Shown: in pieces, positions 3,317 to 5,382 of the stretch
Numbering within the stretch: position 1 is the first letter of the stretch
Layout: every line of letters begins with the position of its first letter
Translations under genes and position numbers: made by a program
Virus record (IMG/VR): IMGVR_UViG_2850756110_000010
Coordinates: 1-9,748 of that record
Direction: 5' to 3' (one strand)
Length of the DNA: 9,748 nucleotides
Source of the DNA: a virus
Lineage: Duplodnaviria; Heunggongvirae; Uroviricota; Caudoviricetes
Notes under the pieces: generated by a model
Databases searched by the model: none
What the model was told of the DNA's origin: nothing
What the model saw: only the letters and a program-made list of their open reading frames with translations

Positions 3317-3496
3317 ATGTTTGATTACCAAGTTTCCAAACATCCATATTTTGATGAAGCCTGTCGTGCATTTGCACTGCGCCACAATCTGGTGCAACTG
3401 GCAGAACGTGCAGGCATGAATGTGCAGATTCTGCGGAACAAGCTGAACCCAGCTCAGCCTCATTTATTAACCGCACCAGAAATCTGGCTGCTTTGA
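3317..3496 (+). pseudogene. cII: cII (186-type lysogeny establishment activator) truncated after about 59 codons by IS911
   Basis: ATG at 3317 with AGAGG upstream. [59 protein letters not shown] resembles the 186 CII N-terminus (full length about 169 aa, from memory). The stop codon TGA at 3494-3496 is the first three bases of the IS911 left end. Confidence 0.75.
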
Positions 3497-3565
3497 AGTG
3501 GCACACTGAATTTGGCCACCTGAACAGAGGTGATATGCTCACCTCAGAACAACACAGGTGCTCCA

Positions 3566-3868
3566 ATGAAAAAAAGAAATTTTAGCGCAGAGTTTAAACG
3601 CGAATCCGCTCAACTGGTTGTTGACCAGAAATACACGGTGGCAGATGCCGCCAAAGCTATGGATGTTGGCCTTTCCACAATGACAAGATGGGTCAAACAA
3701 CTGCGTGATGAGCGTCAGGGCAAAACACCAAAAGCCTCTCCGATAACACCAGAACAAATCGAAATACGTAAGCTGAGGAAAAAGCTACAACGCATTGAAA
3801 TGGAGAATGAAATATTAAAAAAGGCTACCGCGCTCTTGATGTCAGACTCCCTGAACAGTTCTCGATAA
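3566..3868 (+). CDS. insN: IS911 OrfA (InsN-type HTH/leucine-zipper protein), 100 aa
   Basis: ATG at 3566. Translation [53 protein letters not shown]... is the IS911 OrfA. Confidence 0.92.
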
Positions 3869-4734
3869 TCGGGAAACTCAGAGCGCATTATCCTGTGGTC
3901 ACACTCTGCCAAGTGTTCGGGGTTCATCGCAGCAGCTACAGATACTGGAAAAACCGTCCTGAAAAACCAGACGGCAGACGGGCTGTATTACGCAGTCAGG
4001 TACTTGAGCTACATGGCATCAGCCATGGTTCGGCCGGAGCAAGAAGCATCGCCACAATGGCAACCCGGAGAGGCTACCAGATGGGACGCTGGCTTGCTGG
4101 CAGGCTCATGAAAGAGCTGGGGCTGGTCAGCTGTCAGCAGCCGACTCACCGGAATAAACGTGGTGGTCATGAACATGTTGCTATCCCTAACTACCTTGAA
4201 AGGCAGTTCGCCGTGACCGAGCCAAATCAGGTGTGGTGCGGTGATGTGACCTGTATCTGGACGGGTAAGCGCTGGGCGTACCTCGCCGTTGTTCTCGACC
4301 TGTTCGCAAGAAAACCAGTGGGCTGGGCCATGTCGTTCTCGCCGGACAGCAGGCTCACCATGAAAGCGCTGGAAATGGCATGGGAAACCCGTGGTAAGCC
4401 CGGCGGGGTGATGTTCCACAGCGATCAGGGCAGTCATTATACGAGCAGGCAGTTCCGGCAGTTATTGTGGCGATACCAGATCAGACAGAGTATGAGCCGG
4501 CGCGGAAACTGCTGGGATAACAGCCCAATGGAACGCTTCTTCAGGAGTCTGAAGAACGAATGGATGCCGGTGGTGGGTTACGTAAGCTTCAGCGAGGCAG
4601 CTCACGCCATAACGGACTATATCGTTGGATATTACAGCGCACTAAGACCGCACGAATATAACGGTGGGTTACCCCCAAACGAATCGGAAAATCGATACTG
4701 GAAAAACTCTAACTCGGTGGCCAGTTTTTGTTGA
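3814..4734 (+). CDS. insO: IS911 OrfB (InsO-type DDE transposase domain); expressed mainly as an OrfAB fusion by -1 frameshift
   Basis: Frame opens after the TGA at 3808-3810, with ATT at 3814 (IS911 OrfB is reported to initiate at AUU). Translation ...[19 protein letters not shown]...[42 protein letters not shown]... carries the DDE motif region. Confidence 0.9.
3817..3823 (+). other. IS911 programmed -1 frameshift heptamer A-AAA-AAG
   Basis: AAAAAAG at 3817-3823 in the orfA frame within the orfA/orfB overlap. Confidence 0.8.
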
Positions 4735-4743
4735 CCACTTCAC

Positions 4744-5382
4744 GCCAGAGTTTTATTTGAGATCGCAAACAGGGAGGTGGCTTATTACAACATAAGGCAG
4801 GAGTTTAATTACTCAACTGAAATTACTGATTTCATGAAAGCGGTATATTTCCTGTATCTCAATCGTCACGGTTACCGTGGTTTATGTCGCTATAACAAGA
4901 GCGGGCATTTCAACATTCCCTACGGCAATTATAAAAATCCGTATTTCCCTGAAAAAGAAATTCGCGCATTTGCAGAAAAAGCCCAGCGAGCAACGTTTAT
5001 CTGCGCCAGCTTTGATGAAACGCTGGCGATGTTGAAGGCGGGGGATGTGGTGTATTGCGATCCACCGTATGACGGTACGTTTTCCGGCTATCACACTGAT
5101 GGTTTCACTGAAGATGACCAGTATCACCTAGCATCCGTTCTTGAACATCGGTCATCAGAAGGACATCCGGTCATTGTTTCTAACAGTGACACATCCCTGA
5201 TCCGTTCGCTGTATTGCAATTTTACTCACCACTATATCAAGGTAAAACGCAGCATCGGTGTGGCAGCTGGCGAGGGTAAATCAGCAACAGAAATCATTGC
5301 TGTTTCCGGGCCGCGCTGCTGGGTGGGATTTGATTATTCGCGTGGCGTGGATAGTTCTGCCGTGTACGGAGTACGTGCATGA
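4744..5382 (+). pseudogene. dam: Dam-family N6-adenine DNA methyltransferase, 5'-truncated by IS911 (AdoMet-binding motif I missing, DPPY motif present)
   Basis: Open frame runs from the IS911 right end to TGA at 5380-5382. ...[48 protein letters not shown]...[10 protein letters not shown]...VIVSNSDT... resembles E. coli Dam from about residue 75 onward (from memory). No N-terminal FxGxG region and no native start codon. Confidence 0.85.

Follow-up and report, generated by a model that had tools for sequence, protein, structure and literature searches.

An IS911-bounded deletion joins truncated cII to the middle of dam in a 186-like prophage remnant

The stretch of DNA analysed here (the window; 9,748 base pairs (bp), IMG/VR record IMGVR_UViG_2850756110_000010, positions 1 to 9,748) contains a 186-like prophage of the P2 family, represented by its left end and integrated beside rcdA. 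In this prophage, a complete copy of the insertion sequence (IS) element IS911 joins a truncated cII gene to the middle of the phage dam gene. We consider it virtually certain that this lesion is a real deletion bounded by IS911. The window has 100% identity to the chromosome assemblies GCA_900618175.1 (UYIT01000003.1) and CP026834.1, and its source organism is most probably Shigella dysenteriae, given that the plasmid of the next accession, CP026835.1, is from S. dysenteriae ATCC 49347.

On the left side of the element, the cII gene (3317–3496, plus strand) begins with the ATG at 3317 and runs for 59 codons to the residues PEIWLL, ending at 3493, where the IS911 terminus provides the TGA stop codon (3494–3496). 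What remains are codons 1–59 of 169, and the product matches positions 2–53 of 146 in the Pfam profile Phage_CP76. On the right side, a 3′ fragment of dam (4743–5382, plus strand) retains residues 74–285 of 285; it begins at 4743 with the last base of codon 73 and reads without interruption from Ala74 to the natural stop at 5382. Compared with the intact Dam protein, the fragment carries only one substitution, R231C. Its match to the D12 methyltransferase profile starts at position 83 of 253, and thus lacks the first 82 positions with the N-terminal PFAGS motif (S-adenosylmethionine binding), whereas the DPPY motif is kept. Both the CII and the Dam fragments are expected from their sequences to be inactive, and no outward sigma-70-like promoter is predicted from the right end of IS911 into the dam fragment. 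A preliminary description of this DNA had already recognized that IS911 joins truncated cII to mid-dam and that the IS terminus acts as the cII stop, which is confirmed here. It was also right about the in-frame state of dam, placed by it from about residue 75, for which the exact start is residue 74. Of its limits for the element, 3494–4745, the start holds, but the end includes 3 bp of right flank, since the IS ends at 4742.

The extent of the loss is defined by comparison with intact relatives. A megablast search with window positions 2368–6850 against 5,426 complete Escherichia coli genomes identified numerous prophages with matches to both flanks (identity up to 99.8%), in which the matched region spans 4.9–5.4 kilobases (kb) compared with 3.2 kb in the window without the IS. 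A cII-family gene, a DUF5347 gene and dam are listed under the match in all of the top 30 of these. The best match, the prophage of E. coli UPEC-245U (hereafter L001), is 99.8% identical to both flanks and was read in detail as the intact reference. The gene order in L001 is int, a small gene, cI, a gene for a 73-amino-acid protein, cII (169 amino acids), fil, DUF5347, DUF2732, a TraR/DksA-family gene, dam (285 amino acids) and a replication endonuclease gene, and the Pfam families in the intact relative are CI (PF07022), CII/CP76 (PF06892), 186 Fil (PF10893), D12 Dam (PF02086) and gpA (PF05840). This is an early region of the 186 type, with cI divergent from an apl–cII–fil operon that is followed by dam and gene A, near int, as borne out by the L001 annotation, the Pfam assignments and phage relatives including Felsduovirus.

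In pairwise alignment, window 2233–3493 corresponds to L001 3878–5126, and window 4743–5495 to L001 6965–7717, both on the plus strand and collinear. The breakpoints thus lie between L001 5126 and 5127, and between 6964 and 6965, and the absent segment, L001 5127–6964, is exactly 1,838 bp. It comprises cII codons 60–169, fil, the DUF5347 and DUF2732 genes, the traR/dksA-like gene, and dam codons 1–73 (to the second base of codon 73). Homology to L001 ends at 3493 and resumes at 4743, which are the bases just outside the conserved IS911 ends, and the two breakpoints (GCTGCTT/ACCGAT and ATCTCG/CGCCAG in L001) share no microhomology. Among phages, the intact region is covered to 80% or more, at 95–96% identity, by 25 records, including Escherichia phage vB_EcoM-813R9 and Klebsiella phage 4LV2017, and the long form is therefore the arrangement of functional phages. 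The proposal in the preliminary description that the region between cII and dam has been deleted is supported by the presence of these 1,838 bp in a relative as close as L001, and the comparison that it suggested, with intact 186/Fels-2-like prophages, defines the missing interval to the base. Relatives in which a naturally short cII stands beside this dam segment, which it named as a reason to doubt a deletion, do not appear among the top 30 E. coli matches or the 25 phage records, all of which have the long form.

No match to the lost 1,838 bp was obtained in the remaining loci fetched, among them three further IS911 sites from the window's own genome, of which they cover only a small part. 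Nor were junctions with the reciprocal flanks, for which the preliminary description had proposed a search, seen in the fetched loci; success was not expected, because the reciprocal product of a collinear deletion is a circle that is lost.

The element itself (3494–4742, plus strand, 1,249 bp) is a full-length (1–1249), 99.8% match to E. coli copies annotated as “IS3-like element IS911 family transposase”. It has imperfect terminal inverted repeats at 3494–3520 and 4716–4742 (TGAAGTGG...CCACTTCA) with 5′-TG...CA-3′ ends, and identical termini are found in 13 other complete copies from E. coli and Shigella. OrfA (gene at 3566–3868) matches the Pfam family HTH_Tnp_1, and OrfB matches rve and rve_3. 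A slippery A AAA AAG sequence is located at 3817–3823, and the orfB frame (−1) is open from 3823 to a stop at 4732–4734, so that this copy has an intact OrfAB frame.

A simple insertion of IS911 generates a direct target duplication of 3 bp, rarely 4 bp. In the window, the flanking triplets are CTT on the left (3491–3493; L001 5124–5126) and CGC on the right (4743–4745; L001 6965–6967), i.e., there is neither a 3-bp nor a 4-bp duplication, in agreement with the preliminary description. The latter had allowed for a matching direct repeat to emerge once the IS boundaries were corrected, but with the ends fixed by the 13 other complete copies none is present. Delimited in the same way, three of the four copies fetched from E. 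coli do have perfect 3-bp duplications (CGC, GGA and TAC), and it follows that the boundaries are right and that the missing duplication is real. All other defining features of the element are those of IS911, and the absent duplication marks a secondary rearrangement and not a different element. Decay of a former duplication was considered and rejected, since turning CTT into CGC takes two substitutions within 3 bp, in flanks that show 99.8% identity to the relative.

The same state is frequent in Shigella, where nine complete IS911 copies were sampled, three of the nine from the genome of the window itself; in eight of them a duplication of 3 or 4 bp is missing, as compared with one of four in E. 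coli. Most IS911 copies in the sampled Shigella genomes have taken part in secondary rearrangements. The Shigella copies were sampled as loci L022–L031, with the element at 1429–2677 of each. A one-sided change like that in the window is also seen in a pair of E. coli strains, EC28 (L013) and A24 (L014), which share the right IS911 flank (a fragment of IS66 tnpA) and have unlike left flanks, with a CGC/CGC duplication in one strain and CAG/CGC in the other.

As for the distribution of the junction, Shigella assemblies were sampled through exact protein look-ups with the 59-residue CII and 182-residue Dam fragments, which are present in 207 and 71 blocks of the assembly collection, respectively. 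Both junction sequences are exact in eight of the ten 20-kb loci first fetched (L002–L008 and L011), and the pair is also found in CP026823.1, in PSST01000003.1 and in short-read contigs. The left junction is the same in all ten loci, and the right flank exists in three states. For six carrier chromosomes, the plasmids of adjacent accessions bear the names S. dysenteriae 204/96, ATCC 9753, ATCC 49346, ATCC 12037, ATCC 49347 and CFSAN029786, and wherever the organism could be deduced in this way, the other chromosome assemblies that carry both junctions, at least eight in number, appear to be S. dysenteriae. Short contigs of about 2.2 kb with only the dam and gene A fragments occur in a draft NCBI assembly and in Logan run assemblies, one of them in at least 20 samples, and the right junction is spanned within a short draft contig (L040, NCBI LPSX01000276.1). 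The actual left junction is absent from the GTDB species representatives, probably since Shigella has no separate representative there. The carrier loci differ by later events, namely an IS1 within IS911, the presence or absence of IS2 and of a 65-bp deletion in gene A, and the right flank of an IS66-family element. Because strains that share the junction differ by these later events, the deletion must be old; the junction is an old allele fixed in the lineage, and not an assembly artefact. The IS1 copies inside IS911 are located in L003, L004, L009 and L011 (at about 10340–11095 of the loci, near window 3634–3654), and inactivate the IS911 copies concerned.

Of the two mechanisms named in the preliminary description, transposase-mediated adjacent deletion from a single IS911 copy is somewhat favoured over recombination between two copies. 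According to this reading, one copy of IS911 would have entered the prophage in an ancestor of the S. dysenteriae lineage by ordinary transposition, probably at the CTT triplet in cII. The DNA beside the right end of the element would then have been removed by a transposase-mediated intramolecular adjacent deletion, in which a nearby target is attacked by the IS ends, or by an IS dimer or the junction between abutted inverted repeats (IR–IR junction). The reaction would have fused the right end of IS911 to dam codon 73, with loss of the 1,838 bp and one copy of the target duplication, and left the IS intact. Deprived of the last two-thirds of cII, of fil and three small early genes, and of the first quarter of dam, the early region would be dead. 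The sequences show the deletion with its exact end points, the missing duplication and the fixation of the allele in many strains, whereas we infer in which order the events took place, on which side the element first inserted, and that transposase was responsible and not RecA.

Three observations lean towards adjacent deletion: the invariant left junction as against three states of the right flank, a nested loss that starts from the right IS end in one strain, and the lack of a second IS911 inside the prophage remnant in any locus fetched. The nested loss is found in L009 (CP026832.1), which has the same cII–IS911 left junction and has lost a further 2,742 bp (window 4743–7484), so that at L009 position 12203 the right end of IS911 abuts window position 7485 inside tnpB of the IS66-family element. 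Both local deletions are short (1.8 and 2.7 kb), which suits a local intramolecular reaction better than a second, like-oriented copy inserted by chance. The nested loss in L009 has the pattern reported for IS150, another member of the IS3 family: in the E. coli long-term evolution experiment, each of the 14 duplication-less events of IS plus deletion came after an earlier insertion, and the deletions often grew with time (PMC11708052). IS911 is reported to form tandem dimers with active IR–IR junctions (PMC9333248), which provide a plausible chemistry for adjacent deletion.

Several points weigh against a single-copy adjacent deletion. The expected ancestor, a cII gene interrupted by IS911 with CTT on both sides and the interval kept, was not found in the E. 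coli complete genomes, IMG/VR, JGI metagenomes or GTDB representatives. In exact searches, the IS911 right end followed by any triplet and the downstream cII sequence gave no match in IMG/VR, JGI metagenomes and GTDB representatives, and the upstream dam sequence followed by CGC and the IS911 left end gave none in IMG/VR and JGI metagenomes; in the E. coli complete genomes, a whole-region megablast found no record with IS911 at either site, none reaching 80% coverage. The original insertion may have been in dam as well as in cII, and the canonical copy-out-paste-in route of IS911 does not in itself remove flanking DNA. Moreover, recombination between IS911 copies is clearly common in these genomes, as seen from the eight duplication-less Shigella copies and from an inversion in CP026828.1. 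In that chromosome, the cII–IS911 half (L010, at about 3.91 megabases (Mb)) and the IS911–dam half (L039, at about 3.70 Mb) are about 0.2 Mb apart in opposite orientation, and each adjoins an IS911 of identical sequence, which is an inversion between IS911 copies. A simple inversion with a duplication pair was rejected for this chromosome, because the partner flanks, TGT and TCA, do not match, and the inversion must therefore have a more complex history.

The main alternative starts from two independent, like-oriented IS911 insertions, in cII (duplication CTT) and in dam (duplication CGC), and supposes that RecA-dependent recombination between them removed the interval and one IS as a circle, leaving a hybrid IS with the outer flanks. 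This course predicts exactly the structure that is observed, i.e., an intact IS, differing triplets and collinear flanks, and it agrees with the missing duplications at most of the sampled Shigella copies and with the CP026828.1 inversion, which involves this very copy of IS911. On the other hand, it needs two insertions in the same orientation within 1.8 kb, and a third, unobserved insertion to account for the nested deletion in L009, and intermediates with a single or double insertion are missing from the fetched loci and the E. coli complete genomes. We therefore regard recombination between two copies as possible, and as the less probable of these two courses. Deletion by a route independent of the IS ends, such as a double-strand break or slippage, before or at the same time as the entry of IS911 into the break or junction without duplication, is quite improbable. 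Entry of IS elements into breaks during rearrangements without duplications has been proposed for some IS5 and IS481 events, but all IS3-family cases in the same study were explained as adjacent deletions (PMC11708052). The breakpoints here lack microhomology, unlike the nearby 65-bp deletion with its 10-bp repeat, and an ordinary insertion of IS911 into an existing junction would have left a 3-bp duplication.

That no deletion took place, and that the arrangement is either a natural phage variant with short cII and partial dam or an artefact of assembly across a repeated IS, has hardly any probability at all. No point was found in its favour; only profile positions 2–53 of 146 are left in the cII fragment, the match of the dam fragment begins at position 83 of 253, the full interval is there in every close relative, and the identical junction pair is present in several independent complete chromosome assemblies, with the right junction also contained within contig L040. 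Profile coverage, relatives and independent assemblies together refute it.

Returning to adjacent deletion, a broader reading would be that a single IS911 copy, fixed in cII, was the point from which one-sided rearrangements at the right end set out time and again in different S. dysenteriae strains, namely the 1.8-kb loss into dam, then the 2.7-kb extension into the IS66-family element in L009, and the inversion of about 0.2 Mb in CP026828.1. We put this forward only tentatively, and think it somewhat doubtful.

The remainder of the window carries several further lesions. The integrase gene at the left edge (1–624, minus strand) is represented by its N-terminal 207 codons and ends with a premature stop, W208* (CTA at window 1–3 compared with CCA in the intact relative); the remaining int frame extends upstream of the window in L002. 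An IS2 element (903–2233, plus strand) is a simple insertion flanked by a 5-bp duplication, GAGAC, at 898–902 and 2234–2238. Of the loci compared, the two assemblies identical to the window are the only ones with this IS2, the eight sister loci being without it, and its insertion is therefore recent. IS2 disrupts a small ydcA-like gene between int and cI. Within this small int–cI gene, there is also a 12-bp tandem duplication relative to L001 (GATAAAGAGCAT, twice, at about 2305–2328), and its product has 67 or 63 amino acids depending on the strain. The gene for the 186-type CI repressor (2368–2937, minus strand) encodes 189 amino acids with matches to Pfam Phage_CI_repr and Phage_CI_C, and annotation of the Shigella loci and of intact L001 gives a product of equal length. 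Between cI and cII, a gene for a 73-residue protein in the apl/cox position (3063–3284, plus strand) is present also in the intact relative.

Downstream of dam, the replication gene A (P2 gpA-like; 5379–6838, plus strand) is damaged by a 65-bp frameshift deletion between 10-bp direct repeats (AGTTGCGCCG), with the junction at 5486–5495, which splits it into open reading frames of 43 and 455 amino acids. The window shares this deletion with L003, L004 and L011, and the 65 bp are still there in L005, L007 and L008; its form suggests slippage or microhomology and not an IS event. Gene A is then interrupted at 6838 by an IS66-family element of 2,441 bp with three open reading frames (6839–9279, plus strand). 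In sister strains, this insertion has an 8-bp duplication, CATTGACG, and gene A continues beyond the element. In the window, the right flank from 9280 onward is instead the ybgS–aroG–gpmA–galM region, which replaces the rest of the prophage and of which ybgS (9368–9748, minus strand, Pfam YbgS) is chromosomal and not prophage DNA. This region is presumably not adjacent to rcdA in E. coli K-12. The right end of the IS66-family element is a second IS junction without duplication, and belongs to a larger rearrangement that removed the rest of the prophage. From int W208*, the cII–dam deletion, the gene A frameshift, the IS66-family insertion and the downstream replacement, it follows that the prophage is a multiply crippled remnant, in which only cI and the gene in the apl position are full length.

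Among known systems, coliphage 186 and Fels-2-type phages of the P2 family have the same order of early genes (int, cI, apl, cII and fil, followed at some distance by dam and A) and the same Pfam families as the intact relative, but unlike these phages, the region in the window is a non-functional remnant in which the late genes are replaced by chromosomal DNA. The element is the same as in canonical simple IS911 insertions (99.8%), with the same termini, orfA/orfB organization and A AAA AAG site; the window copy differs in that it lacks the 3-bp duplication and in that its flanks are 1,838 bp apart in uninterrupted sequence. Adjacent deletions by IS3-family elements, described for IS150 and for IS3 with fused orfAB, share with the present case the retention of the IS, deletion from the exact IS end and the lack of a duplication, and their sizes range from bases to tens of kb with later extension, to be compared with the nested deletion in L009 (PMC11708052). 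The same study attributes duplication-less IS copies to adjacent deletion or recombination between copies (PMC11708052). Unlike IS150, for which the two-step history is documented, the element here is IS911 and the stage with a single insertion is deduced.

IS911 is one of the five IS elements (IS1, IS2, IS4, IS600 and IS911) that have expanded in all Shigella species, where IS-associated deletion drives genome decay (PMC7373316). Our case concerns the same group of organisms and the same IS, with inactivation and deletion of genes and many fixed junctions, and the IS2 and the IS66-family element in the window add to the likeness. The main text of that study never mentions prophages (PMC7373316), and the window provides one concrete instance in a prophage remnant. 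The event is nevertheless ordinary, already-known IS-driven decay of a prophage in Shigella, present in many public genomes. The deletion accounts for the short cII and dam calls in these Shigella genomes, and is of little consequence beyond annotation; judged from its sequence, the prophage should be unable to be induced or to replicate. With three states of the right flank against a single, unvarying left junction, the sister alleles might be used as a modest phylogenetic marker, and they offer a natural case in which adjacent deletion could be distinguished from recombination between copies. If rearrangements did repeatedly start from the element in cII, the growth of IS3-family adjacent deletions, which has so far been followed stepwise only in laboratory evolution, would have left a natural and datable record at this locus. 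To the known picture of genome decay in Shigella, the junction adds a base-precise example of IS911-associated loss of DNA.

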